Shown: piece after piece, positions 24,480 through 42,413 of the stretch
Layout: each line of letters starts with the position of its first letter
Numbering within the stretch: the stretch's first letter is position 1
NCBI GenBank assembly: GCA_047618185.1
Contig: JBLHKZ010000003.1
Span: forward strand, 1 to 54,975
Origin: Limisphaerales bacterium
GTDB lineage: Bacteria; Verrucomicrobiota; Verrucomicrobiia; Limisphaerales; JAYPEY01
DNA: 54,975 bases
Direction: 5' to 3'
Program-made: the position numbers and the translations under genes
The notes under the pieces: generated by a model
Told to the model about the DNA's origin: nothing
The model's input: only the letters and a program-made list of their open reading frames with translations
The model's database searches: none

Positions 24480-27374
24480 TCACCGCTCAACGATCCGGAA
24501 AAACAGCGATGGCTCGATCCCAATAATCGCGTCGAAGATGTGAACGGCGCCGTCTCCAGACACCGACACTCCAACGTCAGTCCACGGGCCAGCCGCATTC
24601 GGCGACGATTGCAGTTGATAGGTGATGCCTGCGCCCGTGGCAAAACCGAGCGTCAGCTTGCCCAGCGCGGGCGTGAAACCCAACTCCAGCGGAACGGGCG
24701 TCGCCATCCCGGCGCTCGTCAGGAATTCAGACTCATTCAGGATCGTCCAGCCGGCCGCCCAGTTGGCGACGCCAAACGCGCCCACAAAGTTGGCCTGAAC
24801 AAAGAAATCATCGCCCGCCGGGGCGACGCGACTCGGCGCAAATGCCGGGCTGGCCATTGCCGGACGCGGATCCAGCCCGAACACGACGTTGATATCCAGC
24901 CCGCCAAGCATCGGATCGACAATCTGATTGGCCTTGCTCATATCCGTAAAGAACACAAGCGCGTCCGCCGAGGCAATGTCCGTCGCCGTGGATCCGGCGC
25001 CGAAATCGAAGAAGATGTTGCCCGCAATGTCGAGATCGCCCGCCGCCACGCGGGCCGCGGCATTGCTGTCCACACGAACCGCCTGATCGCCAAAGCCGGT
25101 GAAGATCGAGTTGTAGTATTTGCCCCCGGCGTTCTCCCGCATCCGCAGGGCGTCGCCACCCGTGCCCGCGCCCGAGCCAGGCCCGACATACGTCACGTTG
25201 TAAATCGTCGGATTGCTGAAGGGCGTCTTTGTGAAATCATCCACGTCGCCATCGTGCTCGCCTCCGTTGTCCATCGCGTTGTCGCCAATCGTAAACCAAA
25301 ACTGCCCCTTACCGCGCCAGCCCTGGTCGTAGTCGAACGAATCGTCTCCACAGAACGTCACGACCGCATACTTCACACCGACCGTCCCGCCGAAGAACTC
25401 AACGCCATCATCGAGGTTGGCGTAGACTTCGATGAACTCCACCGTCGTCCCTCGGCCCACGCCGCCGAGCGTCAGGCCGTTGATCTCGTTGTTGGAGCCG
25501 ATCGAAACGCCTCCGTGCCGGATCGACACGTAGCGGATCACGCCCGAGTTGTCGTTGTCGTCGCTTCCTCCGAACTGACCACGAGGCTCGCTGGTCGGGA
25601 TTCCCTCGATGTTGTCCATGATCGGACTGCCGGCCGCGGCGGGGCTGTTGAGCGTCGCCGCTCCGAGGACGATCAAGCCTCCCCAACGCCCGCGATCCGT
25701 CGGTCCCAGGTCAAAGGGGTCGCCCATGTCATCGGCCTCCGCCGTGAAGATGATGGGATCGGCGGCTGTGCCTTCGGCAAATATCTTTCCGCCCCGGGCG
25801 ACAACCAATGCCGAGGCGTTCTCATTGCTGCCTGGCTTGCCCTTGATCACCACACCCGGCTCGATCGTCAGCGTTTCGCCCGCCTCCACGAACACGCGCC
25901 CCTCCAGGAGGTAAGTGTTGCCCTTGCGCCACACCGCGTTGCCCTGAATGTCATTGGCCCCGCCGTCAATCACCGTGATTGTCTGACCCTGCGCCAACGC
26001 GTAGTTCGGCTCCGCCGCTCCCGCCTCGCTGATCAGGTCCGTCGCCCCCATGATCGTCCAGGCCGACGCCCAGTTGACCGTCCCGTCAAAGGCGCCCTTG
26101 AAGCTCACGTCGTTGAAGAACCCATCGCCCGGCTCGTCCAGTCCGGCCATTAGCGCCGGGCTGCCGCCCTGCAGTCGGGGATCGAATGCATCCGCCGCGT
26201 CGAAGATCCGCCCGATGCCCATCAACATCGGATCGCTGATCGCATTGCCTTTGGCCATGTCCGTGAAGAACACCTGCGCGTCGGTCGACGCGATATCCGC
26301 CGCGGTCGATCCGGCGCCGAAATCGAAGAAGAGGCTCTGCTGGATGTCCAGGTCGCCGGCGGTGACCCGCGCCCCGGCGTTGCTGTCGACTCGAACCGCC
26401 TGATCGCCAAAGCCGGTGAAAATCGAGTTGTAGTATTTGCCCGCGGCGTTCTCCCGCATCCGCAGAGCGTCTCCGCCCGTCCCGGCTCCCGAGCCGGGAC
26501 CGATGTAGGTCACGTTGTAAATCAGCGGATTGCTCAACGGCAGTTTCGTGAAGTCGTCCACATCGCCGTCATGTTCGCCGCCGTTGTCCATCGCGTTATC
26601 GCCAATCGTCAGCCAGAACTGGCCCTTTCCACGCCAGCCCTGATCGTAGTCAAAGCTGTCGTCTCCGCAGTAGCTCACCACAGCGTGCTTCACGCCGACC
26701 GTCCCGCCGAAGAACTCAACGCCATCATCCAGGTTGGCGTAGACTTCAACGAACTCCACGGTCGTCCCTCGGCCCACGCCGCCGAGCGTCAGGCCGTTGA
26801 TCTCGTTGTTGGAGCCGATCGAAACGCCTCCGTGCCGGATCGACACGTAGCGGATCACGCCCGAGTTGTCGTTGTCGTCGCTTCCTCCGAACTGACCACG
26901 AGGCTCGCTGGTCGGGATTCCCTCGATGTTGTCCATGATCGGACTGCCGGCCGCGGCGGGGCTGTTGAGCGTCGCCGCTCCGAGGACGATCAAGCCTCCC
27001 CAACGCCCGCGATCCGTCGGTCCCAGGTCAAAGGGGTCGCCCATGTCATCGGCCTCCGCCGTGAAGATGATGGGATCGGCGGCTGTGCCTTCGGCAAATA
27101 TCTTTCCGCCCCGGGCGACAACCAATGCCGAGGCGTTCTCATTGCTGCCTGGCTTGCCCTTGATCACCACACCCGGCTCGATCGTCAGCGTTTCGCCCGC
27201 TTCCACGAACACGCGCCCCTCGAGTAGATAGACATTGTCGGAGGTCCAGGTCGTATTGCCGACGATGTCATTGACGCCGCCGTCGGAGACGGCAATGTCC
27301 GCGGCCGCCGCGACAGAAACAGTAAGCGACATTGCGAAGAGGCAGGAGATACGTTTGCGGATTTCAGTGATCAT
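24480..27374 (-). CDS. Secreted protein with two tandem ~439-aa Asp/Gly-rich (beta-helix-like) modules and a short C-terminal domain
   Basis: Signal peptide; duplicated module (LTIEPGVVIKG, WGGLIVLG, SGVIRYVSIRHGG, EINGLTLGGVG, DDGVEFFGGTV, GDDSFDYDQG); tail YQLQSS..W...FFRIVER. Confidence 0.85.
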   Translation of the reverse strand: MITEIRKRISCLFAMSLTVSVAAAADIAVSDGGVNDIVGNTTWTSDNVYLLEGRVFVEAGETLTIEPGVVIKGKPGSNENASALVVARGGKIFAEGTAADPIIFTAEADDMGDPFDLGPTDRGRWGGLIVLGAATLNSPAAAGSPIMDNIEGIPTSEPRGQFGGSDDNDNSGVIRYVSIRHGGVSIGSNNEINGLTLGGVGRGTTVEFVEVYANLDDGVEFFGGTVGVKHAVVSYCGDDSFDYDQGWRGKGQFWLTIGDNAMDNGGEHDGDVDDFTKLPLSNPLIYNVTYIGPGSGAGTGGDALRMRENAAGKYYNSIFTGFGDQAVRVDSNAGARVTAGDLDIQQSLFFDFGAGSTAADIASTDAQVFFTDMAKGNAISDPMLMGIGRIFDAADAFDPRLQGGSPALMAGLDEPGDGFFNDVSFKGAFDGTVNWASAWTIMGATDLISEAGAAEPNYALAQGQTITVIDGGANDIQGNAVWRKGNTYLLEGRVFVEAGETLTIEPGVVIKGKPGSNENASALVVARGGKIFAEGTAADPIIFTAEADDMGDPFDLGPTDRGRWGGLIVLGAATLNSPAAAGSPIMDNIEGIPTSEPRGQFGGSDDNDNSGVIRYVSIRHGGVSIGSNNEINGLTLGGVGRGTTVEFIEVYANLDDGVEFFGGTVGVKYAVVTFCGDDSFDYDQGWRGKGQFWFTIGDNAMDNGGEHDGDVDDFTKTPFSNPTIYNVTYVGPGSGAGTGGDALRMRENAGGKYYNSIFTGFGDQAVRVDSNAAARVAAGDLDIAGNIFFDFGAGSTATDIASADALVFFTDMSKANQIVDPMLGGLDINVVFGLDPRPAMASPAFAPSRVAPAGDDFFVQANFVGAFGVANWAAGWTILNESEFLTSAGMATPVPLELGFTPALGKLTLGFATGAGITYQLQSSPNAAGPWTDVGVSVSGDGAVHIFDAIIGIEPSLFFRIVER
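25444..27200. repeat. Intragenic direct repeat: 25444-25883 is identical to 26761-27200 (440 bp, offset 1317 bp)
   Basis: Line-by-line comparison found no mismatch in this block. Flanking parts of the two modules carry many synonymous differences. Confidence 0.92.
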
Positions 27375-27550: not shown

Positions 27551-30499
27551 TCAAAAATCGTAGCTAAAGGCAATGCCGATCGAGCGGCCCTTCCGGTAGG
27601 ACGACACCGTGCCGACGCCGCTTCCGTCGGGTTGGTCCTGGGTTCGCTCCACCGACGGATCGAGGAGGTTCTTGGCTGAGAGCTTCACGGTCCACTTTTC
27701 GGTGAGCCTCTGGGACAGTCGAAAATCCAACGACGCAAACGAGGCTTCGAAAACGCTCGGCGCGATGCGGGAGGTCTTTTCGAGGCGCTCACCGTAGATG
27801 TTGAAGAAGACACTCGCGGTCGTGCCCAGATCCGGGTGGCGATAGGTAAGATCGAGATTGATGATGTACGGCGACTGTCCCTGCAGCGGACGCGTGTTGA
27901 TGCCACGCGCGTGCTTGTCGAACTCGAACCTCGTCGTGTCCACCTCCGAGCGAATGTAGGAGAAATTCGCGCCAAAGTTGAAGTTGCTGAGCGACGAATC
28001 GATGAAATCCAAATCCTTGCGCAACTCCGCCTCGAAACCGAACACCGTGGCTTTCTCACGATTGTTGTAGGTCACTTCGTGATTCGCCGAAATCTCCTCC
28101 TTCTCAATCGGCATCTTCAATGTCTTGTAGAAAAAGCCCCCGGCCAACACCTCGCCCGGACGGGGAAACCACTCCCAGCGAATGTCGTAATTCTGAATCG
28201 AAGTCTGCTCGAGCGCCGAGTTGCCCTGCAGAATATCGCCGCCAATAAAGTCAAAGGTTGGAACCGGGGAAATTTCGCGAAAGGTTGGCCGCGCCAGCGT
28301 CTGTCCGTAGGCGACGCGGAGATTCACGTTGGTCCGCATCGCATACACGAAACTCGCGCCCGGCAGGATATCCAGATTGCTCTTCGAGGTGGACCCCTGG
28401 GCGCCCGGGGAGGAAACCGCGGCGCCGTTGGCGTCCAACGACAGGGTTGACGCCTCGGCCCGAACGCCGCCGATGAAGTTCAGCCTCTCGGTCAACGCGA
28501 GGTCGAACATGCCATATCCCGCATCCACGGTCAGCTCGCCCGTGTAGTTGTTGAACGGCTCTTCGAAGGCGTAGACGTTGTAGCGAAACCCGCCGAATCG
28601 ATTGGGAGGCGGCTGCGGCTCAAATGCCGAATCGATGATGAACAGATCCGGGTCGCCAAGATGCGCAAAATCGTTGTTGGACCCGTAGGTGAAGCGACGC
28701 TCTTTGTAGTCCCGCTTCGACAACGATCGGTTCACCCCGAATTTCAACTCGCTGTCGAGTCCGTTCCACTGCTCGAACGGAATGCTTTGATCGATTTTCA
28801 GATTCAGATTGTTCTCGTTTAGCTCGCGAAAGAATCGTGTCGGCGCGGTGTAGGACGACAGATCGATGCTGGCGGCGCCGGTGACCGGGTTGCGGTCCAG
28901 GGCGAAGAAACGCCGGTCCGGCTCGTTCTGGCTCGTCGTCGCGTAGGAAACGCTCCAATCCGTCTGGGCCTCATATTTCCATGGCAGCTCATGTTTGCCC
29001 GCCAGTTGAAAGGACTGAATCTCCCGCTCGATGAAAGCCAGCGCGTAATTCTCGAACACCCGGCCCGCGACATTGTCGAGTGAGCCGAGTTGGGTGACGG
29101 CGGTGTCTTCGCTGTTCCGATTATAGAGAAAATTAAAGGTGATCTCGTGCCGATCGTAGAACTTCAGTCCGAGATTGACCAACGAACCCCAAGACACTTC
29201 CTCCGTCGATTTTGCCTCAACCACATCGAGATCCGCCTGCAGCGTTCCGGCGTTGTTCCTGAATTGCCGCCGGAAGCCGTCGTCGTAATTTTTGAAATCG
29301 CGGTCATACGAAACGCCCGCGAGATAACCGAAAGTGACGTTCTCCGTGAGATTCGTGCTGTCCCCGATGGAGACGCTGAAATTGTGGTTTGCCGGCGCCC
29401 TTCGTCGATCGGGCGTCAGCTTCGGAAAAAAGGCCTGACCCAGCGCGGCCAACTCCTCGCCCGCCGCCATCGCCGCCGCGCCCCGACCCGTCGCCTGATC
29501 CAGAAGCGGCCGCTCTCCCGTGTTCGGATTCGGGAGAATAACGTAATTCGGGCCCGCCCACTCATCTGGAATCGACCGTGTCCCATCGTCGAAACCCGCC
29601 CAGTCCCATTTGCCGTCGCCCGGCGTCGTGAGAAAGTCGTCCGTGCCCGTCGTCTGCGTGTTGTAGGACAGGCCGACGCTCGCATTGGAAAAGAACTCCT
29701 CGGGAAAACTCTTCGTCTTGATGTTCACCGAGCCGCCGCTGAAACTGCCCGGCTGATCCGGAGTAAAGGTCTTGCTGATCACGATCGAATCAATCGCCGA
29801 AGCCGGGAAAATATCCATCTGCACCGACTTGCGATCCGGGTCGGGGCTCGGCACGCCGCTGCCGTTTAGCATCGTGTTGCTGTAACGATCGCCCAATCCG
29901 CGAATGACCACATACTTGCCGCCAACCACCGAAGCGCCGGTGACTTTCGACATCGCCTCCGCCGCATTCGCCGCGCCCGCCCGTGAGATGAACTCCGAGC
30001 CGATCGCGTCAGTCACCGCGGACGCGTCCTGACGATCGGCAAGCAGCGCCGTGATCTGGTTTTCGGCGGGTGGATCGGAAATGACCTCGAATGGCTCAAG
30101 CTCCTGAACCACCGGCGACAGCGCGGCGTCCGCCTTCGTCACTTGTCCGACCGCCACGCGGATATCAACAATCGTCATGCGCTCAAACCCCGGCTTTGAA
30201 ACAAAGATCGCGTGAACGCCCGCGGGAATATTCTGAATCTGAAAACTTCCCTGGGCATCGCTTGTCCCGCCCAGCGTCGTTCCCCGCACGCTGACGACCG
30301 CGCCGGGAATCGACCCGCCACGCCCGAACGAATTCGACACCCGGCCCGCGATCGCGCCGCCCTCCGACGACTGCGCCAACGCCGCGCCGGGCAGGAGCGC
30401 CGCCAGGACGAGGGTCAACCAGCGCCGTAATAACGACAAAGGCGACCGGCAACGGGCATGGCTCGCCCGATCGGAATGACATTCCCGCTGTGGTGACAT
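27551..30499 (-). CDS. TonB-dependent receptor with N-terminal carboxypeptidase-regulatory-like domain
   Basis: Plug motifs VVIRGLGDRYS, MDIFPAS and FSGGSVNIKTK; barrel motifs ARPTFREI and NLLD; C-terminal aromatic residue (FSYDF). Confidence 0.95.
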   Translation of the reverse strand: MSPQRECHSDRASHARCRSPLSLLRRWLTLVLAALLPGAALAQSSEGGAIAGRVSNSFGRGGSIPGAVVSVRGTTLGGTSDAQGSFQIQNIPAGVHAIFVSKPGFERMTIVDIRVAVGQVTKADAALSPVVQELEPFEVISDPPAENQITALLADRQDASAVTDAIGSEFISRAGAANAAEAMSKVTGASVVGGKYVVIRGLGDRYSNTMLNGSGVPSPDPDRKSVQMDIFPASAIDSIVISKTFTPDQPGSFSGGSVNIKTKSFPEEFFSNASVGLSYNTQTTGTDDFLTTPGDGKWDWAGFDDGTRSIPDEWAGPNYVILPNPNTGERPLLDQATGRGAAAMAAGEELAALGQAFFPKLTPDRRRAPANHNFSVSIGDSTNLTENVTFGYLAGVSYDRDFKNYDDGFRRQFRNNAGTLQADLDVVEAKSTEEVSWGSLVNLGLKFYDRHEITFNFLYNRNSEDTAVTQLGSLDNVAGRVFENYALAFIEREIQSFQLAGKHELPWKYEAQTDWSVSYATTSQNEPDRRFFALDRNPVTGAASIDLSSYTAPTRFFRELNENNLNLKIDQSIPFEQWNGLDSELKFGVNRSLSKRDYKERRFTYGSNNDFAHLGDPDLFIIDSAFEPQPPPNRFGGFRYNVYAFEEPFNNYTGELTVDAGYGMFDLALTERLNFIGGVRAEASTLSLDANGAAVSSPGAQGSTSKSNLDILPGASFVYAMRTNVNLRVAYGQTLARPTFREISPVPTFDFIGGDILQGNSALEQTSIQNYDIRWEWFPRPGEVLAGGFFYKTLKMPIEKEEISANHEVTYNNREKATVFGFEAELRKDLDFIDSSLSNFNFGANFSYIRSEVDTTRFEFDKHARGINTRPLQGQSPYIINLDLTYRHPDLGTTASVFFNIYGERLEKTSRIAPSVFEASFASLDFRLSQRLTEKWTVKLSAKNLLDPSVERTQDQPDGSGVGTVSSYRKGRSIGIAFSYDF

Positions 30500-30539
30500 G
30501 AATCTGAAAATGCGCGCGGAGTGGCGGTTCGAATGCGAA

Positions 30540-32135
30540 TCAGGACCGCTTTCGCGCCGCCCGTTGAACCGCCTCCAAATAGCGTTGGATGTTGTCGCGA
30601 TACCGGACTTTCTGAGCCTGTGTCAGCAAATCGACAGCTCTGTCGTATTTCCGCGCGCGCACCTGCAATTGCGCGCGTTTGACCAGTCCGGCCGCTTCAA
30701 ATCCCTCAATCTGCGAAGCCAGATCGTAACGATGATCCGCCCTGGCCACCCGGACGGCCGCCTGCTCGTCGGTTTCCTCCTCCGGCGGCGCCGCGTAGTA
30801 ATCGCCGACCATCAACAGCGCCTCGGCATCCAACGGATTCTTTCCAATGATCTTCTCCAGAACTTCGATCGCCCGATCGCCCTCGCCGCTGGCCAACGCG
30901 GCTTTGGACTCCAGCTTCAGCAGTGTCATCTCCTCGGCCTCCTTGAGTTTCTCGCCGTGAAGGTCGCGGATCCTGCCGAAGATCGCGCGCGCCTCGTCCC
31001 AGGCCCCGCTGGCCGCCAGAATGCCCGCCGCGCGCAGCGAGCGGCGCACATCGTTCACACCGTCCTTTTCGATCGCCTCCAGGTAAACCGACAACGCCAG
31101 CATTGGAGATTCCTGGCTCATGTAGATGTCGCCGAGCAGCATAAGATTCGCGAGGCTGGCCTTTCCGAGCTTGCGGAGAATCTCGTAGTTGATGGCCGCT
31201 CGCTTCGGTTTTTCCATCTGCATGAAAAGACTCGCCTGAATGTCCCAAAGCCTCGCGTCGGTCGGATCGGCCTTGATCAGCGTTTCGAGAAAGGAGTCCG
31301 CGGAGCTCAGTTTGCCCTGCTCGATCTGGCAGGTGAGCAATCCCATTCTCCAATCGCGCTGACCCGGCATCAACATCATTGCGTTGCGATAGGCGCCCTC
31401 CGCTCCGATGTAGTTCTCGTGCTTCAAATGGCACACGCCAAGGATGCCGTAGACGTGGCCATCACCGCCGCCGAGCTCGATGGTCCGGGTCAATTCCGGA
31501 ATCGCCTCCTCAAACCGCTCCATGCCCACAAGCGAAATGCCGAGGTTCTTGTGCGCGCGAAGGAAATTGGGAAACTTGTCGATCGCGCTTCGATACGCGG
31601 GAACCGCCTTCTCGTGTTCGCTCTTTTGAAAATACAGGTTGCCCAGATAGTAATCGAAAATGGCGTTGTCGTTGGTCGTGACGTTCTCAGTGAGCAGCTT
31701 GATGGCGGCGTCCGTGTCGCGGGTCATCAGCGGAAACAACATTTCATTGTGGAACGACAGTTCATTGGTTCCGCCAATGAAGTTGGTGTTGGAGGCCGTT
31801 GGTTTTGGAGGCTCGATGTCCGTGCGATATCCGAAACTGCCGGCAAAGCTTTTCACAAAGTTGCGATCGGACCAGAATGCGGCCAGGGGGTTGTCCGAGG
31901 AAGGAGGATTGGAGAGTTTGAGGTTCCGCGGGATCGCTGCGCGACCCGTGGGAAGTCGAATCGGCGCCGGCTCGACCACGACGGCGGCGGCGGCAGCCTC
32001 AGTCGCCGAATCCGCTCCGCGCTCCTTGAGTTTGAAAAGTTGAGCCGCGCCTGTCGTCGGCATGGCGAGCGCCAACGCCAGCCAGCCATACCATGCCAAG
32101 GCGCGAATTCGAGAGACGTGAAATAGAGGCTTCAT
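30540..32135 (-). CDS. Periplasmic tetratricopeptide-repeat protein (TtpD-like)
   Basis: Signal peptide and multiple TPRs (YYLGNLYF...AHKNLG). Follows tonB in the operon. Confidence 0.85.
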   Translation of the reverse strand: MKPLFHVSRIRALAWYGWLALALAMPTTGAAQLFKLKERGADSATEAAAAAVVVEPAPIRLPTGRAAIPRNLKLSNPPSSDNPLAAFWSDRNFVKSFAGSFGYRTDIEPPKPTASNTNFIGGTNELSFHNEMLFPLMTRDTDAAIKLLTENVTTNDNAIFDYYLGNLYFQKSEHEKAVPAYRSAIDKFPNFLRAHKNLGISLVGMERFEEAIPELTRTIELGGGDGHVYGILGVCHLKHENYIGAEGAYRNAMMLMPGQRDWRMGLLTCQIEQGKLSSADSFLETLIKADPTDARLWDIQASLFMQMEKPKRAAINYEILRKLGKASLANLMLLGDIYMSQESPMLALSVYLEAIEKDGVNDVRRSLRAAGILAASGAWDEARAIFGRIRDLHGEKLKEAEEMTLLKLESKAALASGEGDRAIEVLEKIIGKNPLDAEALLMVGDYYAAPPEEETDEQAAVRVARADHRYDLASQIEGFEAAGLVKRAQLQVRARKYDRAVDLLTQAQKVRYRDNIQRYLEAVQRAARKRS

Positions 32136-32149
32136 GGGGTAAGTCAGAG

Positions 32150-32815
32150 TCAGGAATTGACGTTGAATTGGATTTGCTGCCGAACGTAGACACTGACAGC
32201 CCCGCCTTCGCGTTGACCGGGTTTAAACTTCCACCGACGCACGGCATCCAGGGCGGGCTTCTCAAACTCAGGCCGACTAGAATTCTCCACCCGCGCTTCC
32301 TCGACCCGGCCCTGGTCGTTCACGACGAACAACAGGACGACCGAACCCGAAACCTTCTGTTTGAGCAGGCTTGGGGGATGTTTGGGCCGGACCGGACCGA
32401 CGAGCATGGGTTTGCTGTCCAAATCGGAAAGTTCGAAAACCTCCGCCTGATCCATCTGGGCGGCCGCGCCCACAAAACTCGCGAGACGATCATTCAAGGC
32501 GCCTCCAGTTCCCATGCCAATGTCGAGACTCGGAATCTCAAACGACATGTCGTTCGCCGCGAGGTCGAGTTCCGGCACGGGTTCCGGCTCCGGCTCCGGC
32601 TCGGGTTCGGGCTCTTCCTCCTCGACCACCGGAGGCGGGGGCGGGGGCTCAAGGGTCGCCGTCTCAAGGCCTGTCAGGACCTTGTCGACGCGACCGGCCG
32701 ACAGCATCTGGGTGAGCGGCAGCACGAGAAACACCGAGGCCGTCAGGAGGATCGCGCCGAACACCGCGCGCATCCAGCCGCCGCCAATCTCGGGTGGGGT
32801 AAATACTTTTCTCAT
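32150..32815 (-). CDS. tonB: Energy transducer TonB
   Basis: N-terminal TM, a Pro/Glu linker (EPEPEP) and TonB_C (FEKPALDAVRRWKFKPG). Confidence 0.93.
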   Translation of the reverse strand: MRKVFTPPEIGGGWMRAVFGAILLTASVFLVLPLTQMLSAGRVDKVLTGLETATLEPPPPPPVVEEEEPEPEPEPEPEPVPELDLAANDMSFEIPSLDIGMGTGGALNDRLASFVGAAAQMDQAEVFELSDLDSKPMLVGPVRPKHPPSLLKQKVSGSVVLLFVVNDQGRVEEARVENSSRPEFEKPALDAVRRWKFKPGQREGGAVSVYVRQQIQFNVNS

Positions 32816-32838
32816 CGATGCATTCCTCCAGCGCGCGC

Positions 32839-33246
32839 TCAGCCGTCCTTGTCCGTTGCCAGACTCACGTTTTCGGCGCCGCCCATGCGGGCCTCGTCCA
32901 CGACCGACATCACCACCCCGGCGTGGGCGCCTTTAAGCGCCTTGACGATCACCGGCGATTCCTCGCGCACCGCCTTGTCGCGCACCAGAGCCCGCACGCC
33001 CGCGACCCCGACTTCCTTGCCGTCAAGGATCACCTGCCCCCTGGCGTCCACTTCGAAAATCAGACTTTCGCTCTCCGACATGGAGACGCTGGCGCTCTGC
33101 GGCCGATCCACCCCCACGCCGCTTTCCTCAACGAAAACCGTGGTGACGATGAAAAAGATCAGGAGGATAAAAACCATGTCGATCAACGGGGAAATGTTGA
33201 TCTCCTCGATCTCATCGGAATCCTGAATGGAACGTCGGCCTCTCAT
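32839..33246 (-). CDS. exbD: Biopolymer transporter ExbD (copy 2)
   Basis: EINISPLIDMVFILLIFFIVTT with the conserved TM Asp. Confidence 0.93.
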   Translation of the reverse strand: MRGRRSIQDSDEIEEINISPLIDMVFILLIFFIVTTVFVEESGVGVDRPQSASVSMSESESLIFEVDARGQVILDGKEVGVAGVRALVRDKAVREESPVIVKALKGAHAGVVMSVVDEARMGGAENVSLATDKDG

Positions 33247-33252
33247 CGGTCG

Positions 33253-33657
33253 TCAGCCCTTGTCCGTGGCGATGTCGATCCGCAGCGCGCCGCCCAGTTG
33301 CGCGGCGTCCAGCGCCTTCGCGACCGTCTCCGCCAACGCAGCGGCGTCGACCTGGAGAATGACCGGCATGGGATCCTGTCGGGTAAGTCTCTTCACCAGG
33401 GGACGGATCCCGCCGACGCCAATATTGGAGCCGCCGTAGATGACCTGATCGTCGCCGGTGATCGCGATGAGAATGCTGTTCTTGTCGAGCTGCTCGCCGG
33501 ACGCCGCCCGCGGGCGGCTCACATCGACGCCCGGCTCCTCGACAAACACCGTGGTGACGATGAAGAAGATCAGGAGGATAAACACCATATCGATCAGCGG
33601 GGAGATGTTGATCTCCTCCAGCTTGTCGGATTCGGTGATGGATCGACGGCTTTTCAT
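33253..33657 (-). CDS. exbD: Biopolymer transporter ExbD (copy 1)
   Basis: EINISPLIDMVFILLIFFIVTT. Confidence 0.93.
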   Translation of the reverse strand: MKSRRSITESDKLEEINISPLIDMVFILLIFFIVTTVFVEEPGVDVSRPRAASGEQLDKNSILIAITGDDQVIYGGSNIGVGGIRPLVKRLTRQDPMPVILQVDAAALAETVAKALDAAQLGGALRIDIATDKG

Positions 33658-33669
33658 GGACGGCGGGCG

Positions 33670-34368
33670 TCAGGCGGGAACGGGCGCTCCGAGGTAGTCG
33701 TCCTCGTTGACGGCCTCAAACACCGGCTCGGCGTTGGAGGAACTCATGGACTCGGGAGAAACCGGCGGTCGACCGCCATTTCCGCCGTCAAAGGTCAACA
33801 GCGTAAAACTTTCGAGCTTGGCGAGAAAGGCCTCGTACTCGTCGCGTCGAGCCTTGACGAGAGAGGCAAGCGCGTAGCCGGGAAGCGCGACCAGCAGCCC
33901 CATTTCCGTGGTGATCAGCGCCTCGGAGATGCCCGAGGCGATCAGATCGGCGGTTTTGGCTCCGCCGATGGAAATGCCGTCGAACGTGGCGATCATGCCC
34001 AACACCGTGCCGAGCAGGCCGAGCAACGGCGCGGCGGCGACCATGACGTTCATAAACACCAGACGGCGGTCAATTTCAGGAAGCTTGGCGGAGACGACCT
34101 CGGAAAAGCGGTCCTGCACCTCATCCCTCGTGCGGGCGTCGTCCTGGGTGTAGCGAATGATCTCTCCGACCTCGCCGCGACCCGAGTCGGGTTCCAACAC
34201 CCACTGCTCCCAATCCTTCTGCGGCGTCCGCTTGAACTCGCGTTTGGAAAAATAGACCAGCAATTGCAGCGCGGTCCCATAAATGAAAAAGGCCATGACG
34301 AGCAACGGGATCATCAGCCAGCCACCGGCCAGCCACAAATGAGTCAATTTCGCGATTTCGTCGATCAT
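33670..34368 (-). CDS. exbB: MotA/TolQ/ExbB proton-channel protein
   Basis: APLLGLLGTVLGMI and GISEALITTEMGL. Start placed at ATG 34368 (MIDEIAK). Confidence 0.9.
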   Translation of the reverse strand: MIDEIAKLTHLWLAGGWLMIPLLVMAFFIYGTALQLLVYFSKREFKRTPQKDWEQWVLEPDSGRGEVGEIIRYTQDDARTRDEVQDRFSEVVSAKLPEIDRRLVFMNVMVAAAPLLGLLGTVLGMIATFDGISIGGAKTADLIASGISEALITTEMGLLVALPGYALASLVKARRDEYEAFLAKLESFTLLTFDGGNGGRPPVSPESMSSSNAEPVFEAVNEDDYLGAPVPA

Positions 34369-34417
34369 GTCGTTTCCTGTTTGGTTGTGGTTTCGGAGAA
34401 AGGCTCCCGGGTTCGGG

Positions 34418-35932
34418 TCAGGCGGCCACGGGCGCCGCGTTCGTGAGCTCCTCGGTTTCTTCAACGGTCTCAGATTTTTCGGGGACAGGGCTCGGCGCCG
34501 GCTTGCCGCCTTCGGCCCTCGGCGGTTCGCCGCCGTCATCGCCGCCTTCGTCAGGAACGCCATTGATGAAGGCGACGGAAGCCTGCTCCATGCTGCCCAG
34601 CACGCCCTTGGCCTTCCGCGAGATGAAGGCATGAATCAGCAACGCCGGGATGGCGACAATCAGGCCAAACTCCGTGGTGACCAACGCCTCGGAAATGCCG
34701 GATGACAGCATCTTCGGATCCCCCGTGCCGAACACGCTGATCAGACGGAAAGTGTTGATCATGCCGGTGACCGTGCCGAGCAGACCAAGCAGCGGCGCGG
34801 TGGCGGCGGCCAACGCCACGAAGGGCATCCACCGCTCAAGTTGAGGCTTGGCAATGAGCATCTTCTCGTAAAGCGCCTCCTCAATGTACTCCTTCTTTTC
34901 GCCGGCGTGCTGGACCGCCGCCTGCATGAGTTCACCGACCGGACCCTTGATCGTCTGTGCGTGGGCCATGGCGCCCTCCTCGTTGCCGGCCTTCACCCGA
35001 TCGAGAATGATCTGCAGGTCGCGCGGCTTCGCCAGGCGGACGCCCGCGATTTGAATCCACTTCATCAGGCCGATGACGACGGCGAGAATGCCCATGACGA
35101 GAATGGGAACCACCACCGGACCGCCCTTGGAAACGTGCTCCACAAAACTTTCCTTCGTTGCCGCGATCTTGTCGGCGTTGCCCCCGGAAGGATCGAATGG
35201 AACCGCGCCGGCGCCGCCGCTGACGAGCGCCTTGAGTTCGGCCTGAAAAGCTTCTGCCGCGGGAATGACCGACGGCTCTGTTGTGTTCAACTGCAGCCGG
35301 GTCAACCCGATCGCTCCGCTCTCGCTGGAGGCGAAGGCGGCCAACGGTCCGACCAGCGCGTAGGTTCCGTTCTCCAGCTTGCCGGACTCGGTGAGCGCCT
35401 TGCCCTCGAACGACTCGCCGCCCAGCACGGCGTCGATGCGATCCAGCGCCGTGTCCAGCATGCCGAGGCGTTTTTCAAGACGCTCGAACACGCCCCGATC
35501 CGCGTTGCCCGAGTCGGCGCGCGCGGCGGCGATGCCATCCTTGTAACGCGCGACCTCCGCGATATGCGTCCGTGATTCGAAGGCGTTCAGGTATTCGTTC
35601 AAGGCGCCGCTTACGAAGGAGATTTCAGCGCCGCGAGCCTTCACTTCGGATTTCAGCACATTCAAATCCACGATCTTGTTTTCCAGATCGCGGGTGGTCT
35701 TCTCGACCTCCCGACGCCGGGCGAGCGTCGCTTCCTCCGCCTTGGCCCATTTCTCCGCCAATGGGATTTTCTCCTCCGAAATGCGCATTTGCGCCGCCGC
35801 CAGATCCGACAGCGCCGCGTTCAGATCCTTTTTAGCGGAACCTGAAACGGCCGAGAAATCCTGCGCCGTCGCCGTGGCGGCGAATCCAACCAGTAGAAGC
35901 CCGGAAATGAATTTGAAAAATCGGTGTAGCAT
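34418..35932 (-). CDS. TtpC-like large ExbB homolog (periplasmic coiled-coil N-terminus plus ExbB domain)
   Basis: Signal peptide, coiled coil, PFDPSGG, then APLLGLLGTVTGMI..GDPKMLSSGISEALVTT. Confidence 0.85.
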   Translation of the reverse strand: MLHRFFKFISGLLLVGFAATATAQDFSAVSGSAKKDLNAALSDLAAAQMRISEEKIPLAEKWAKAEEATLARRREVEKTTRDLENKIVDLNVLKSEVKARGAEISFVSGALNEYLNAFESRTHIAEVARYKDGIAAARADSGNADRGVFERLEKRLGMLDTALDRIDAVLGGESFEGKALTESGKLENGTYALVGPLAAFASSESGAIGLTRLQLNTTEPSVIPAAEAFQAELKALVSGGAGAVPFDPSGGNADKIAATKESFVEHVSKGGPVVVPILVMGILAVVIGLMKWIQIAGVRLAKPRDLQIILDRVKAGNEEGAMAHAQTIKGPVGELMQAAVQHAGEKKEYIEEALYEKMLIAKPQLERWMPFVALAAATAPLLGLLGTVTGMINTFRLISVFGTGDPKMLSSGISEALVTTEFGLIVAIPALLIHAFISRKAKGVLGSMEQASVAFINGVPDEGGDDGGEPPRAEGGKPAPSPVPEKSETVEETEELTNAAPVAA

Positions 35933-35947
35933 TCGCGTGGGGGAAAA

Positions 35948-36727
35948 TCAGTTCACCTTGATCGGGAGTCCGACGTAGGCGGCGGGTTGCGCGCTGTCAT
36001 AGATGGCCAGAGTCTTGGCGACGAGCGGCGCCAGTTCCTTGTTCTCGGCCCACTCCCAGCCGGTCGCCGTGGCGGTTCCCGTTCCGGCGTAATTGCCGTT
36101 CTTGTCGGTGTAGAAAGCCTGACCCAGTCCGAGATAGAGCGTGCGAACCTGGATTTCGCCGCCTTCGGAGATTTGCCGCACCTCGGGTTCAACACGGACC
36201 GAGCCGTTGAATTCGTCGACCGCCTTGAGCATGCCGATCAAAACCTGGACACGCTTGCCCTCGGTCATTTTGGTGCTCGCCGGATCCACGGGCATCATCG
36301 CAAACAGCGGCGTGATCTTGTCGATCACCGGCGGCGGCAAACGCTTGTGAAGCTTTTGGAACTTGGCTTCAAACCTCGTGAGCAGCGCGCCGATTTTATC
36401 GAGCGCCGATTTCAATTCCTCGTTTTCGACCGTCTGCTCCTCGATCTCTTTCTTGATCTGTTGGTTGCCCTTGTTCTGGCCTGCGCCCGATTCGATGGCC
36501 TTGAGCTGGTCGTCCAGGCGTTTGAGCTCTCCCTCGAACAGTCCGATGGCCGCCCCGAGCGTTTCACGGTCGGAGAGCCAGTCAGCCTCGACGCGGCCCA
36601 AAGTCATTCGCGCCTCGACCCATTGCTGAAGCGTTGCGCGCGTATCTCCAATTTCATCCTGGGCGTGGGAGCCCTGTGATAAACTGGCGGACATGAATCC
36701 AACCGACACCCAGATTCGAAATTTCAT
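35948..36727 (-). CDS. DUF3450-family (TtpB-like) periplasmic coiled-coil protein
   Basis: Signal peptide, coiled coil and LYLGLGQAFY...WEW. First gene of a TtpC-ExbB-ExbD-TonB operon. Confidence 0.8.
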   Translation of the reverse strand: MKFRIWVSVGFMSASLSQGSHAQDEIGDTRATLQQWVEARMTLGRVEADWLSDRETLGAAIGLFEGELKRLDDQLKAIESGAGQNKGNQQIKKEIEEQTVENEELKSALDKIGALLTRFEAKFQKLHKRLPPPVIDKITPLFAMMPVDPASTKMTEGKRVQVLIGMLKAVDEFNGSVRVEPEVRQISEGGEIQVRTLYLGLGQAFYTDKNGNYAGTGTATATGWEWAENKELAPLVAKTLAIYDSAQPAAYVGLPIKVN

Positions 36728-36745
36728 GTCGCCACTCTCCGGCCG

Positions 36746-36789
36746 ATCAATTACGACAGCGTGACGAGGAAGTTACGATTCCGTGACAG
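36746..36789 (-). promoter_or_regulatory. Four-unit Pho-box-like direct repeat array oriented toward the TonB operon
   Basis: Minus strand: CTGTCACGGAA TCGTAACTTCC TCGTCACGCTG TCGTAATTGAT. The 11-bp period with a GT(C/A)A(C/T) core resembles the PhoB consensus CTGTCAT-N4. Confidence 0.75.
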
Positions 36790-36848
36790 GCATGGCTGAT
36801 CCAATGAAATAGTTGGAAGAAGGAGGCCGCTTGATTCTCTTAGCTCAC

Positions 36849-37653
36849 ATGGCTGTTTCAGTGATGCTGTTCATTCTGGTTCTCGGCCTGGCATTCTGGA
36901 ATGGCGCCAATGATGTCTCCAAAGGCATCGCCACCCTCGCGGGCAGCGGCGGCGACGTTCGCGCGAATGCCGGTGTCCACCACGCACGCAATCACCGGAT
37001 CGCTGGTGGGCGCGGGGATCGTCGTTGCGGGGGTCGGCGGGTTGGCATGGCAAAGATTGATTGAGAAGTTTCTGATCCCGTTGGCGGTGAGCCCGATTCT
37101 GGCTCTCGCGTTCACCTTCGCGCTGTATCCGTTGTTCCAACGACTCATGGCAAAGCTGGCTCAGCATTGCCTGTGCCTGTCCAGCTCCACCGGAGGCATC
37201 GTTCCCCTGGAAAACAACGCCGTCGCAATGACAACCAACGGCGCATGCGTTATCTCCGAGTCCTCCGAGTCCTGCGGCGCCAACCCCGAAATCACTCGCC
37301 GGCTAAACCTGCCCTCGAACGCCGCGCTTCTCGCAGTGGCGGTCGCGATGGGACTTGGAAGCGCGCTCGCCGGCTTCAAAGTCACCGAGACCCTCGCCAC
37401 CAAAGTCACGTCCATGTCTCCGGCCGAAGGCTGCTCGGCCAACCTCGTCACAGCCGCTCTGGTGATCGTCGCCTCCCGCCTCGGAGCGCCAGTTTCCACG
37501 ACTCACGTGAGTTCCTGCTCGATCATTGGCATGGGCCTCAAACGCGATGCCCGGTCCATCCAATGGAAAACTGTACGTGAAATGCTCTTCGCCTGGATCG
37601 TCACGCTGCCTGTTGCCGGTCTGATCGCCGCCGCAGTGGCATGGCTGCTTTGA
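36849..37653 (+). pseudogene. Inorganic phosphate transporter (PiT/PHO4 family), frameshifted with internal deletions
   Basis: One frame gives FWNGANDVSKGIATLAGSG. It then shifts frame to MPVSTTHAITGSLVGAG...PVSTTHVSSCSIIG...AWIVTLP. The intervening TMs and the second GxND motif are missing. Confidence 0.8.
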
Positions 37654-37687
37654 GGAAATCCGCAATTTCAGCTGAACTCTCTCGCCT

Positions 37688-37709
37688 TTGTCACACAACT
37701 GTAACATTG
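37688..37709 (+). promoter_or_regulatory. Pho box upstream of the phosphate porin
   Basis: TTGTCACACAA CTGTAACATTG, a near-consensus two-unit box. Confidence 0.8.
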
Positions 37710-37777
37710 GCGCCATCTTCTCGTTGCTCCGGCAATTCACCTTATCACCAAGCAAATCGAAACGAGAAACCGAACCG

Positions 37778-39181
37778 ATGAAACAACTGAACCAAAAAGT
37801 GAAACGATGCCTCACGGCAACCGTCGCCTTCATTGCGCTTGGGAGCCTTTGCGTAGCCGCCCACGCTCAATCAAACGACGCCCTGCTCGACGCCTTGATC
37901 AAGAAGGGCATCTTGACCAAAGACGAGGCCACGGCAATCCAGACCGAAGCGGCGCAACCCGGGACCGTCGCCATGCCAGTCAGAGAACTCAGCCCGATCA
38001 CAGCCGATCCGGAATTCAAGTCCATTCTCGACAAGGCAATCAACGAAAGACTGGATGGAAAGTGGTACAACAAGCTGAAACTCGCTGGCTACACCCAGGT
38101 TCGCTACACGAGCCTCTTCAATCAAAGCGGAGCCGTCCTGAACGTGCCCAACGACGGATCAGCCCGGGATAGTGAGTCGCTTCGAATCCGCCGGGGCCGG
38201 ATCAAGTTTTCCGGCGACGTGGCGGAGCGGCTCTACCTCTACGCTCAGATGGATTTCGCGGCGTCCGTCGGCGGCGGTTTCGCCCTGCAAATGCGCGACC
38301 TTTACGGGGATCTGGCCTTGGACGCCAACAAGGAATTCCGCGTTCGTCTTGGACAGTCGAAGGTCCCCTTTGGCTTCGTGAACCTCCAATCGAGCCAGAA
38401 CCGCCCGACGCTTGAACGAGCAGACGGCATCAACAGCGCCGCAGAAAACGAACGTGATATTGCCGCGATCTTTTATTGGACCCCCACGGAAGTTCAGAAG
38501 CGCTTCAAGGAGATGAAGAAGCTGGGCCTTAAGCATTCGGGAAATTATGGCATGCTGGGCCTCGGTATTTACAACGGGCAAGGTCCCAATCGAAACGACG
38601 TCAACGGCGCCTTTCACACGGTGGCCAGGGCGACCTACCCGTTCAAGTTTGACAACGGTCGGTTTCTGGAACTGGGCGTCCAGGCCTACCACGGCGAATA
38701 TCAGGTCAGCACAGTGGATCCCGATGGCCTCGGACTGCTGGTGACTCCCTCCGCCGGCGCGAACGGCACGACCGACCAGCGCGTCGGAGGCAGCATCATT
38801 CTCTATCCCCAGCCATGGGGTGTGGAGGCGGAATGGAACGTGGGTCGCGGTCCGACTCTGAGTCCGGATCTCACTCGCGTCGACTCAACCTTCCTTCACG
38901 GCGGATACCTGATGGCCTACTACCAGAAGGAAACCAGCTGGGGACGTTTCTTTCCCTACGTCAGGTGGAACTACTACGACGGCGGACGAAAATTTGCCGC
39001 CAACGCCCCGGGATCCGTCGTCAATGAAATGGATTTCGGCGTGGAATGGTCGCCGTGGCCCTACGCCGAGTTGTCCGTTCAATACACCAAGACCTTTGAG
39101 CGCACCAACACGGGAGTGGCGCCCTACGCATCAACCACAGATGCGGATCGCGTAGGATTTCAATTGCAGTTCAACTATTGA
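37778..39181 (+). CDS. Phosphate-selective porin OprO/OprP family
   Basis: Signal peptide, LLDALIKKGILT, RIRRGRIKFSG, RLGQSKVPFG..NLQSSQNR..LER and C-terminal QLQFNY. Lies upstream of pstS. Start placed at ATG 37778. Confidence 0.85.
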   Translation: MKQLNQKVKRCLTATVAFIALGSLCVAAHAQSNDALLDALIKKGILTKDEATAIQTEAAQPGTVAMPVRELSPITADPEFKSILDKAINERLDGKWYNKLKLAGYTQVRYTSLFNQSGAVLNVPNDGSARDSESLRIRRGRIKFSGDVAERLYLYAQMDFAASVGGGFALQMRDLYGDLALDANKEFRVRLGQSKVPFGFVNLQSSQNRPTLERADGINSAAENERDIAAIFYWTPTEVQKRFKEMKKLGLKHSGNYGMLGLGIYNGQGPNRNDVNGAFHTVARATYPFKFDNGRFLELGVQAYHGEYQVSTVDPDGLGLLVTPSAGANGTTDQRVGGSIILYPQPWGVEAEWNVGRGPTLSPDLTRVDSTFLHGGYLMAYYQKETSWGRFFPYVRWNYYDGGRKFAANAPGSVVNEMDFGVEWSPWPYAELSVQYTKTFERTNTGVAPYASTTDADRVGFQLQFNY

Positions 39182-39196
39182 ATGCGGGTCGGAGCA

Positions 39197-39218
39197 TTGT
39201 CACAGATCCATCACCTGC
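39197..39218 (+). promoter_or_regulatory. Pho box upstream of pstS
   Basis: TTGTCACAGAT CCATCACCTGC. Confidence 0.65.
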
Positions 39219-39299
39219 CCGGCGCCTGTTCGTGACTTTGGCGTTGGATAATCCGCGGAGCCTAACGGCATCACATCGAATCCATCGCTCAAACACAAT

Positions 39300-40154
39300 A
39301 TGAAGAAACTGATTCAATCCATCTGCGCCGCGGCCATTGTCGCGACCGCCGCAACCGCCCAGGCCGGAACCATCACCGCCAAGGGCTCGGACACCCTCGT
39401 GATTCTCGCCCAGAAATGGGCCGAGGTTTACATGGCTCAAAACCCCGGCACGACCATCCAGGTCACCGGCGGCGGCTCGGGCACCGGATTTGCGGCCCTG
39501 CAGAACAAGACCACCGACCTGGCCAACGCCTCCCGCAAGATCAAGGCCAAGGAAAAGATCGCCTGCATCAAGGCCTTCAGAAAATCGCCGACCGAATACA
39601 AGGTCGCGCTGGACGGACTGTCGGTCTACGTCAACGCCGCCAACGGCGTCGAACACCTCACCATCGACCAGCTCGACAACATCTTCACCGGCAAGATCAC
39701 CGACTGGAGCCAGGTCGGCGGCAAAGCGGGAAGGATCACGGTCTATAGCCGCGAGAACAGCTCGGGCACCTATGAGTTTTTCAAGAAGAACGTGCTCAAA
39801 GGAAAAGACTTCGTCGCCCGCGCCCAGACCATGCCCGGCACCGCCGCCGTGCTCCAGGCCGTTGGCAAGGACACGACCGGCATCGGCTACGGCGGCGCCG
39901 CCTACGGAGGTGGAGCCAAGACCATCCTCGTGAAAAAGGACGCGAATTCACCCGCGATCGCGCCAACCGAAGAAAACGTCATCAGCGGCAGGTATCCGAT
40001 CTGGCGTTACTTGTATATCTACGTGAACCCCGCGCTCGACAAGGGCGAGGTCGGCGCCTACCTGAAGTGGATCCGCTCGGCCGACGGCCAAAAAATCGTC
40101 AAAAACGTCGGCTATTACCCGCTGCCGAAAGCCATGCAACTCTCCTCTCGATAG
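39300..40154 (+). CDS. pstS: Phosphate ABC transporter substrate-binding protein
   Basis: Motifs KGSDT, GGGSGTG, DLANASR, SRENSSGT and YPIWRYLY. Confidence 0.95.
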   Translation: MKKLIQSICAAAIVATAATAQAGTITAKGSDTLVILAQKWAEVYMAQNPGTTIQVTGGGSGTGFAALQNKTTDLANASRKIKAKEKIACIKAFRKSPTEYKVALDGLSVYVNAANGVEHLTIDQLDNIFTGKITDWSQVGGKAGRITVYSRENSSGTYEFFKKNVLKGKDFVARAQTMPGTAAVLQAVGKDTTGIGYGGAAYGGGAKTILVKKDANSPAIAPTEENVISGRYPIWRYLYIYVNPALDKGEVGAYLKWIRSADGQKIVKNVGYYPLPKAMQLSSR

Positions 40155-40205
40155 TTCCTCCTGGAGAACGGGAACCTGTCCTCCAACAGACCCGTGACTG
40201 AATCC

Positions 40206-40250
40206 AGGGCGTCCCGGCTCAGCCAACGCAGATCCGGGGCGCCCTTTCTT
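40206..40250 (+). terminator. Intercistronic stem-loop after pstS (terminator or mRNA stabiliser)
   Basis: AGGGCGTCCCGG...CCGGGGCGCCCT followed by TTCTT. Confidence 0.55.
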
Positions 40251-40264
40251 CATCTAAACACACA

Positions 40265-41446
40265 TTGTCAGTGACCAGTCCATCCGGCAAATCCAGCGAC
40301 TCCCGATGGACCGGCATTCTTCGCGGGAAGAAGCGTCGCCCGCTGGAGTGGCTCGTTGAGAAAGGCATCTTCCTCGTTTCCCTGTCCGCGATCCTGATGG
40401 TGTTTCTCATCTTCCTGTTCGTCGGACGGGAAGCCTTGCCGATCTTCCTCGGCAAGATGGACAGCTCGGTGGAAATCGACGTTGTCCAACCCGATCAAAT
40501 GGCCTCGCTTTCCAAAGCGGAGCTGCAGACGTATCTCGAACTGTCGGACGACGAGTTCGTCGAGATGGACGAGGAGACCCTCATGCTGATGATGGAGGTC
40601 AAGGTGGAGGAGGCCGCCGAAGCGCCCGAAGACAAGGACGCCGCCGTCAACACCACGGAGTGGAAATACCTGCTCAAACCCTACCAATGGACAGGCTATG
40701 ACAAACCCGAACACATCTGGCAGCCCGTTTCCGAGATTCACAAATACAACATCGTTCCCCTCCTGATCGGCAGCCTGAAGGCGACGCTCGTCGCGCTGCT
40801 ATTCGCCGTGCCGCTCTCGCTTGCCGCCGCCATCTATGTCTCCCAATTGGCAAAACCGCGCGTCAAGGAATGGCTCAAACCCGCGATCGAAATGCTCGCC
40901 GGCATCCCCTCGGTCGTGCTCGGTTTTTTTGCGCTGCTCGTCATGGCGACCGTGTTGCAAAAAGTCTTCAACTACGATTCGCGTCTGAACACCTTTGTCG
41001 CCGGCATCGCGCTGGGCCTGGCGATCGTGCCGGTCATTTTCTCGATCGCGGAGGATGCGCTGACCAGTGTGCCTCGCAGCTACACGCAGGCCGCGCTGGC
41101 GCTGGGCTCCTCAAAGTGGCAGGCCGCCTGGCGCATTGTCCTGCCGGCCGCGCTGCCCGGTGTATTCGCCGCCGTCGTTCTCGGCTTCGGTCGCGCAATC
41201 GGTGAAACCATGATCGTCCTCATGGCCAGCGGCAACGCCAGCATCGTCTCCTGGGACATTCTCGAATCCGCGCGCACCATCACCGCGACGATCGCCGCCG
41301 AGCTGGCCGAGACCGTCTTCGGCGGCCACCACTACCGAATGCTTTTCATGCTCGGCACGATTCTCTTCGCCGTAACCTTCGTCTCCAATCTCGCGGGCGA
41401 CCTCATCATTCATCGCCTCAAGAAGAAACTGGAGGGCAACGCCTGA
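40265..41446 (+). CDS. pstC: Phosphate ABC transporter permease PstC
   Basis: IEMLAGIPSVVLGFF and GFGRAIGETM. Start is TTG 40265 or GTG 40271. Confidence 0.95.
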   Translation: MSVTSPSGKSSDSRWTGILRGKKRRPLEWLVEKGIFLVSLSAILMVFLIFLFVGREALPIFLGKMDSSVEIDVVQPDQMASLSKAELQTYLELSDDEFVEMDEETLMLMMEVKVEEAAEAPEDKDAAVNTTEWKYLLKPYQWTGYDKPEHIWQPVSEIHKYNIVPLLIGSLKATLVALLFAVPLSLAAAIYVSQLAKPRVKEWLKPAIEMLAGIPSVVLGFFALLVMATVLQKVFNYDSRLNTFVAGIALGLAIVPVIFSIAEDALTSVPRSYTQAALALGSSKWQAAWRIVLPAALPGVFAAVVLGFGRAIGETMIVLMASGNASIVSWDILESARTITATIAAELAETVFGGHHYRMLFMLGTILFAVTFVSNLAGDLIIHRLKKKLEGNA

Positions 41447-42399: not shown

Positions 42400-42413
42400 A
42401 CGCCAGTCACCCC

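Follow-up and report, generated by a model that had tools for sequence, protein, structure and literature searches.

The window considered here, a stretch of 54,975 nucleotides corresponding to contig C3, belongs to a genome (G000) whose assembly comprises 5,932,968 bases in 468 contigs and is 88% complete. Four congeners (G001 to G004) as well as one genome of another family within the same order (G034) are used for comparison. Public DNA runs that contain the stretch are labelled as ice, seawater and marine metagenomes. On the minus strand of the window lies a string of genes that is headed by a DUF3450 (TtpB-like) gene (35948..36727; Pfam PF11932, E 9.4e-22), the product of which has a signal-peptide-like N-terminus that is kept in orthologues. 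This first gene is followed, at 30540..35932 and as assigned by Pfam, by genes for a large MotA/ExbB (TtpC-like) protein of 504 aa, ExbB, two ExbD proteins, TonB, and a TtpD-like TPR protein. The TPR gene is followed after about 40 bp, on the same strand, by the gene of a TonB-dependent receptor of 982 aa with CarboxypepD_reg, Plug and barrel domains (27551..30499), and beyond it is found the gene of a secreted, PF28492-type beta-helix protein (24480..27332, also minus strand), the 950 aa of which include a tandem duplication of a unit of approximately 531 aa. This last protein has zero matches in the local Pfam copy. The operon, i.e., DUF3450/TtpB-TtpC-ExbB-ExbD-ExbD-TonB-TPR, very probably continues into the receptor and beta-helix genes, with the beta-helix gene possibly the last of the transcription unit. 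A terminator scan returned 19 hits versus 17.8 expected from shuffled sequence, that is, no excess that would mark the 3' end of the operon.

Divergent from this operon, on the plus strand, are genes that Pfam assigns to Pit (PHO4), to a phosphate-selective porin (37778-39181), and then to PstS, PstC, PstA, PstB and PhoU. In this assembly the reading frame of the pit gene (36849..37653) is broken near 36946-36951, with the frame shifting after about 34 codons and the gene being about 60 codons short. A DNA contig from an independent run (X5) possesses about 180-185 extra bases exactly at this break, bases which would restore the frame, and the window therefore reflects either an allele with a deletion or a collapse during assembly.

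Between the DUF3450 and pit genes, at 36746-36789 and as read on the minus strand, are four 7-mers, each followed by a spacer of 4 nt. In order of approach to the DUF3450 gene these are unit 1, CTGTCAC (36783..36789), unit 2, TCGTAAC (36772..36778), unit 3, TCGTCAC (36761..36767), and unit 4, TCGTAAT (36750..36756), with their GT(C/A)A(C/T) cores, which span 36750-36787, spaced by exactly 11 bp. An earlier reading of the sequence, here the first-pass annotation, had described a four-unit array on the minus strand with just this period, ending 18 bp before the DUF3450 ATG (36727-36725). The array is indeed as described, and the distance is correct if counted from 36746, the end of the array, the last 7-mer being instead 22 nt from the ATG. 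A hexamer, GAGAGT (36734..36739, minus strand), which is predicted to serve as the -10 element, follows unit 4 at a distance of 10 bp and is separated from the ATG by 6 nt.

The four-core pattern has a single match in the window, also when one mismatch is tolerated, is seen in 0 of 100 dinucleotide shuffles, and is unique genome-wide, i.e., has but one match over both strands of the entire assembly. Pairs of cores are not enriched at the 11-bp period, with 39 found genome-wide versus 31-49 at other periods that are not multiples of 3, and a two-core match alone therefore is uninformative. As Tandem Repeats Finder reported nothing, this is a spaced motif array rather than a simple tandem repeat. 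PHO boxes are described as consisting of direct-repeat units of 11 nt, of which 7 nucleotides are conserved, with CTGTCAT as the E. coli core (PMC4415409), and a degenerate, multi-species PHO consensus has been presented along with a placement of the box around the -35 position (PMC8601176). All four of the 7-mers here match NTKTMAY if C is allowed at position 2, and units 1 and 2 fit the degenerate PHO consensus in all of the orthologues. A consensus scan found no TTGACA/TATAAT-type promoter before any of the three operons, i.e., those beginning with DUF3450, porin, and pstS.

The first-pass annotation had pointed as well to boxes of the same kind before the porin gene (37688-37709) and before pstS (39197-39218). 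These are present where they were said to be, but each is only the first half of what is itself a four-unit array. Specifically, the porin promoter (37688..37743, plus strand) reads TTGTCAC, CTGTAAC, GCGCCAT, TCGTTGC and then, after 10 bp, CACCTT, of which CAnnnT is invariant in five genomes, and the pstS promoter (39197..39252, plus strand) reads TTGTCAC, CCATCAC, CCGGCGC, TCGTGAC and, again after 10 bp, GATAAT. Ten promoters were anchored on unit 1, three of them of DUF3450 genes, five of porin genes, and two of pstS. All ten display four units at an 11-bp period as well as a hexamer, separated from unit 4 by exactly 10 bp, of which the second position is A and the sixth is T (GAGAGT, GAAGCT, GATTGT, CACCTT, CAGTAT, CAGTCT, CATGGT, CACGAT, GATAAT and GAGACT). 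Downstream of the box, few columns of the porin alignment are invariant, those of CA...T among them. The layout precedes the phosphate porin gene in five of five genomes of the genus, and precedes pstS in G000 and G003. Judged by its arrangement, this shared layout would be that of an activator-dependent PHO-box promoter, with the box lying around -35. In G004 and G003, additional two-unit boxes precede the main porin array by about 80 bp (L045:7197-7214 and L046:9019-9036).

It had been proposed that a matrix be built from such sites and then used to scan the genome, and that equally frequent matches to random intergenic DNA would speak against a regulatory role. Such scans were performed here with matrices that were trained on relatives only, to avoid circularity. 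A two-unit matrix was based on 9 sites that precede porin, pstS and DUF3450 genes in G001-G004. Its best match in G000 is the porin box (25.0), followed by a site on contig C439 (21.3) and then, in third place, by units 1-2 of the present array (20.7). Intergenic hits scoring at least 18 number 4, versus a mean of 0.53 (maximum 2) for 30 column-permuted matrices, and at a low threshold there is no excess, with 85 hits of at least 12 versus a control mean of 124.5. A composite model of 34 columns, i.e., four units plus hexamer, was built from 7 promoters of relatives. Over both strands of the assembly, this model places the DUF3450 promoter first (35.1), the porin promoter second (27.3), and the pstS promoter third (23.7), with a shifted register of the DUF3450 array in fourth place and the next site at 18.5. 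The maxima in six trinucleotide-shuffled genomes range from 16.2 to 20.5. The three promoters of the window consequently are the top three of the composite scan and exceed every shuffled-genome maximum, and random intergenic DNA accordingly does not match the model as well as they do.

Beyond these three promoters, the composite scan finds no site in G000 that is above the null. Two candidates, C64:7341 (18.5) and C112:14912 (18.2), were rejected as Pho sites, being within the null range and beside unrelated genes, and so too was a two-unit match at C26:6139, which faces no gene and for which no tie to phosphate was found. At G000:C439:3177-3205 there are three good half-sites in a row, overlapping an IS-like open reading frame near the contig end; as a Pho site this candidate, C439:3177, could not be tied to phosphate. 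No box was found before the G000 genes for PhoX (C258), before the four PhoD-like genes examined, or before ppk1.

Orthologues of the DUF3450 protein are found in G004 and G003, at 77% and 68% protein identity, respectively, and there the genes upstream of DUF3450 are unrelated to pit. On alignment of the three promoter regions the flanks are seen to have diverged, with TGTCAC-N5-GTAAC (i.e., most of units 1 and 2), unit 4 as GT.AT, a GGA...TG block, and the ATG all invariant. The conserved elements are ungapped relative to the ATG, with unit 1 starting at -62 in all three genomes. Unit 3, which is strong here, is by contrast degenerate in the orthologues, its position being occupied by TCGGCAT in G004 and GCGACTC in G003, as well as by CTGACTT in G034. 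That is, four strong units are peculiar to this genome, and unit 3 is not conserved in orthologues.

The G034 homologue of the DUF3450 protein, which is about 38-40% identical, heads the same operon, and that operon is divergent to a transporter gene that is followed by pstSCAB-phoU. Its promoter reads CCGTCAC, ACGTAAC, CTGACTT, TTGTCAT, 10 bp, GATGGT, 7 nt, and then ATG, for a composite score of 30.3. Unit 1 as well as the GTAAC of unit 2 thus are kept there also, a GT(C/A)AT core of unit 4 is found in four of four DUF3450 promoters, and GAnnnT of the hexamer is invariant across G000, G004, G003 and G034. Of 19 DUF3450 loci of other genomes that were scored, three, those of G003, G004 and G034, reach a composite of at least 20, and the remaining 16 score 14.9 or less. 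A further DUF3450 locus, G000:C69, was left out of the scoring, its contig ending 6 bp upstream of the gene. The retention of the array at -62 despite a different upstream neighbour, along with its occurrence in G034, indicates that it is the TonB operon, rather than pit, to which the array belongs. G001 and G002 have a pst arm that is 88-89% identical, and no orthologous TonB operon was found in them with this query. A search of public genomes with a single protein returned nothing, and one with the alignment returned only the two known orthologous contigs plus one distant locus.

The locus otherwise looks mosaic when window positions 27551-43935 are compared with G001-G004. The G000 pstS shares 88-89% identity with its G001 and G002 counterparts but only 41% with those of G003 and G004, and the G000 TonB arm resembles the G003/G004 version. 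The position that in G000 is held by pit is occupied by a PhoU-like gene together with a Na/Pi cotransporter gene in G001-G003 and by a PhoU-like gene in G004.

The first-pass annotation had remarked that neither phoB nor phoR is in the window, and this is borne out, as none of 45 response-regulator and 9 kinase matches genome-wide is on C3. All four congeners possess a 228-aa response regulator beside a PAS-containing kinase of 408-412 aa that has one N-terminal membrane segment. The best match of the regulator is PhoB, at 256 bits and thus below the curated cut-off of 296.2, and the best matches of the kinase are PnpS, at 360 bits (cut-off 400), and PhoR, at 296 bits (cut-off 334.2). The pair accordingly can be described as PhoB/PhoR-like by best match only, with scores that are under the curated cut-offs. 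Comparison of the PhoB candidate with PDB entries puts MtrA and RegX3 first, given the whole protein, and places the E. coli PhoB DNA-binding domain 10th to 12th, given the C-terminal domain only, with neither comparison discriminating.

The promoters of these phoB-phoR candidates were excluded from model training, and yet the full architecture is found before them in four of four congeners, with unit 1 at -92 to -95 and with composite scores of 25.7-33.7. An array in that location would represent the autoregulation that is expected of phoBR. Together with the ten anchored promoters and that of the G034 DUF3450 gene, these four bring to 15 the four-unit promoters that have nAnnnT at the 10-bp offset. 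An exception is the G034 array that faces pstS, which reads GAAGCC and has a composite of 14.0. In addition, two-unit boxes are located about 83 bp before ppk1 in three congeners (G002:C86:9678-9693, G001:C592:392-407 and G003:C20:37957-37972), with no two-unit box at the ppk1 of G000 (C46:2399-3835).

A phoB gene was not found in the G000 assembly, where no full-length tblastn match to the congener PhoB exceeds 39% identity. Three OmpR-type regulators of G000 were considered for the role of PhoB and set aside, as they are CusR-like or unassigned. What the assembly does contain, at the end of contig C384 (4054-4422), is the last 123 codons of a PhoR-like kinase, which shares 65% identity with the G002 kinase across 113 residues. 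As only this 3' end of the kinase gene is present, and that at the end of a contig, the G000 phoBR most likely fell into an assembly gap. Given the lack of phoB in the assembly, what is said here of the regulator in G000 is drawn from its congeners.

From the end of the hexamer to the DUF3450 ATG there are 6 nt in G000, G004 and G003, and 7 nt in G034. The DUF3450 mRNA is predicted from this spacing to be leaderless, with transcription starting at the A of the ATG (36727), and a leaderless transcript would account for the short distance of the array from that ATG. For the genome as a whole, 4,326 genes were called by a crude procedure of our own, and the upstream spacer is 60 bp or longer for 2,955 of them. 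A TAnnnT word that ends 6 nt ahead of the predicted start is found for 68 genes, versus a background of about 17, and GGAG-type words show no peak, i.e., there is no Shine-Dalgarno enrichment. This suggests that many genes of G000 may be leaderless. The TAnnnT peak, in combination with the missing GGAG peak, also makes the GGAGAG that precedes the DUF3450 ATG likelier to be a part of the -10 region than a ribosome-binding site.

Expression data consist of assembled contigs from public runs, which cannot show regulation, absence, or level of expression. In two RNA runs, which have different study codes, contigs begin at about 37763-37764, that is, about 13 nt after the start that is predicted for the porin promoter (37750). 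This constitutes a weak hint only; the contig starts form no loose end, and a DNA contig runs across the same place. One RNA contig bridges the gap between porin and pstS, and a third RNA run has fragments that lie within DUF3450 (36166-36386) as well as within the large ExbB gene, pit, porin and pstS. The RNA runs X15 and X16 have zero contigs on the TonB operon, which, these being contigs, cannot be read as absence.

The reading that we favour, and which we regard as probable, is that the array is a PhoB-type operator, i.e., a PHO box, which places a TonB2-type operon within the phosphate-starvation regulon. That the array is a Pho box aimed at the TonB operon had been claimed from the window by itself, and the claim has gained from the specificity of the scans, from conservation at -62, and from the layout that is shared with phoB-phoR. 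As to how such an operator could work, phosphorylated PhoB dimers would, as phosphate becomes scarce, bind head-to-tail on units 1-2, which would be the conserved, high-affinity pair. Cooperative binding would then extend PhoB to units 3-4, where it would stand in for a -35 element, and RNA polymerase would thereby be recruited to the hexamer GAGAGT, 10 bp downstream. Transcription would start from the A of the DUF3450 ATG or from a position adjacent to it, giving rise to a leaderless mRNA. To this four-unit, leaderless mechanism we give even chances or slightly better. The consequence would be a cell that energises a dedicated outer-membrane receptor for a phosphorus-containing substrate while inducing its phosphate porin and PstSCAB. 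We infer, in all of this, PhoB as the binder, activation rather than repression, the start of transcription, and the phosphorus-containing nature of the substrate.

A narrower version would have only units 1-2 as a functional PhoB site, with units 3-4 incidental, the -10 element located elsewhere, and GGAGAG acting as a Shine-Dalgarno sequence on an mRNA with a leader. The degeneracy of unit 3 in G004, G003 and G034 is in keeping with this, as is a GGA that is conserved 10-13 nt before the ATG, a distance that would suit a ribosome-binding site. Nevertheless, unit 4 and the hexamer stand in exact register in four of four DUF3450 promoters, the identical 10-bp offset is seen in the porin, pstS and phoB promoters, there is no conserved -10-like element 10 bp after unit 2, and the genome is one without Shine-Dalgarno enrichment that instead has a -10 peak 6 nt before starts. 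We therefore consider this version to be unlikely, if less so than the others to be considered here. One of these others is that the motif is bound by a winged-helix response regulator other than PhoB, one that controls this transport neighbourhood. Consistent with such a regulator, phoB is missing from the G000 assembly, the PhoB candidates of congeners fall below the curated PhoB cut-off, and G000 has three other regulators of OmpR type. One of those three is CusR/CopR-like, however, the half-site is close to CTGTCAT, and a Pho regulon is recognizable in the set of genes that the motif precedes (pstS, the phosphate porin gene, ppk1, and the phoB-phoR candidates), leaving a different regulator as quite improbable.

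The array could also be thought to serve the divergent pit gene, via repression by PhoB of a low-affinity phosphate transporter, instead of the TonB operon. The array is, after all, 60 bp upstream of the pit ATG in an intergenic region that the two genes share, and PhoB represses pit in Sinorhizobium. But G004, G003 and G034 have no pit upstream and still keep the position and orientation of the array relative to the DUF3450 ATG, and the repeats point toward the TonB operon. Pit as the target in place of the TonB operon is for these reasons very improbable, though the array may have an additional effect on pit. As for a chance cluster of GTNAY words, pairs of cores are no commoner at 11 bp than at other spacings, as would be expected of chance, and yet the array of four cores has no second copy in the genome and no counterpart in 100 shuffles, three other genomes conserve it, and its composite score is far above the null maxima. 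The likelihood of mere chance is, in consequence, next to nil.

Downstream of the motor genes, the receptor has orthologues behind the operon in G004 and G003 (75% and 71% identity, respectively), and the beta-helix protein follows the receptor in three genomes, with 1, 2 or about 2.5 tandem copies of the 531-aa unit (24480-27332 on the minus strand of the window, L045:4413-6008, and L047:10588-14517). The 531-aa unit is PF28492 (Beta_helix_4, pectate-lyase-like), a very large family without assigned function, and at least 7,999 homologues of the beta-helix protein are found in metagenomes, many of them named as T9SS-target proteins. In G034 the homologue is encoded elsewhere in the genome, behind an array of its own (G034:C6 near 420673-420688; composite 24.2). 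Tentatively, and with the balance of probability still somewhat against it, marine Verrucomicrobiales may thus possess a conserved phosphorus-scavenging module that consists of a PhoB-driven, leaderless TonB2-type motor operon, a CarboxypepD_reg-type receptor, and a secreted PF28492 beta-helix protein. The case for the beta-helix protein having a role in phosphorus acquisition comes from its following the receptor in three genomes and from its possession of a Pho-type array in a fourth. If that is true, then the PF28492 beta-helix family would be a new component of phosphorus acquisition. The receptor and the beta-helix protein are candidates through which the use of organic or complexed phosphorus could be studied in seawater that is poor in phosphate.

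The promoters described here would also provide a Pho operator and promoter model, at the level of sequence, for the Verrucomicrobiales. This would be the first for the group, as a full-text literature search, gauged by titles and the openings of abstracts, found no published Pho operator of Verrucomicrobia among the papers listed. The model, i.e., four units, 10 bp, nAnnnT, and often a leaderless start, could serve to chart Pho regulons across metagenome-assembled genomes from this group.

In E. coli, two boxes stand in a row at pstS, with a 10-bp gap to the -10 element. The autoregulation of phoBR that is suggested by the promoters of the congeners would be a further likeness to E. coli. The E. 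coli PHO-box promoters (phoA, pstS and phoB), as they are outlined in PMC4415409 and PMC8601176, resemble the array in having 7-nt repeats that are arranged head-to-tail, an 11-bp period, a CTGTCAT-like core, and, if the hexamer is the -10 element, a location around -35. What differs from E. coli is the GT(C/A)AC core, the G+C-rich spacers, the promoter's predicted leaderless character, and a host that belongs to the Verrucomicrobiota. The complex PHO operators of Streptomyces coelicolor are similar in that they are described as having a variable number of unequally conserved 11-nt repeat units, but they have GTTCACC as core and a regulator of another lineage (PMC4415409).

With regard to the genes that the array would control, the nearest likeness in gene content and order is to the Vibrio TonB2 system, given as TtpB2-TtpC2-ExbB2-ExbD2-TonB2-TtpD2 and thus with its DUF3450 protein first; that system is reported to be induced by iron limitation and to function in siderophore uptake (PMC6957404). 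The operon here has instead two ExbD genes, a receptor within the gene string, and a probable Pho-type operator. A complete TonB2-type motor plus receptor appears to be committed to phosphorus supply, where in Vibrio the corresponding system is one of iron uptake. In P. aeruginosa, the PphdA promoter, i.e., of phdA-pdtB-exbB2D2-tonB4, similarly serves an extra ExbB/ExbD/TonB set and is described as PhoB-dependent at low phosphate (PMC4971064), but it is controlled also via the ECF sigma factor VreI, its genes are not of the DUF3450/TtpC/TPR type, and there is no adjacent pst. In Caulobacter crescentus, PhoB is described as controlling several TonB-dependent receptors with a presumed role in the import of compounds that contain phosphorus (PMC11208175). 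There it is receptors that are regulated, whereas here it would be the whole of the energising motor together with its receptor. Pho control of TonB systems thus is already known, from Pseudomonas and Caulobacter, and what is added here is the arrangement in four units, a start that is predicted to be leaderless, and conservation in two families of the order.
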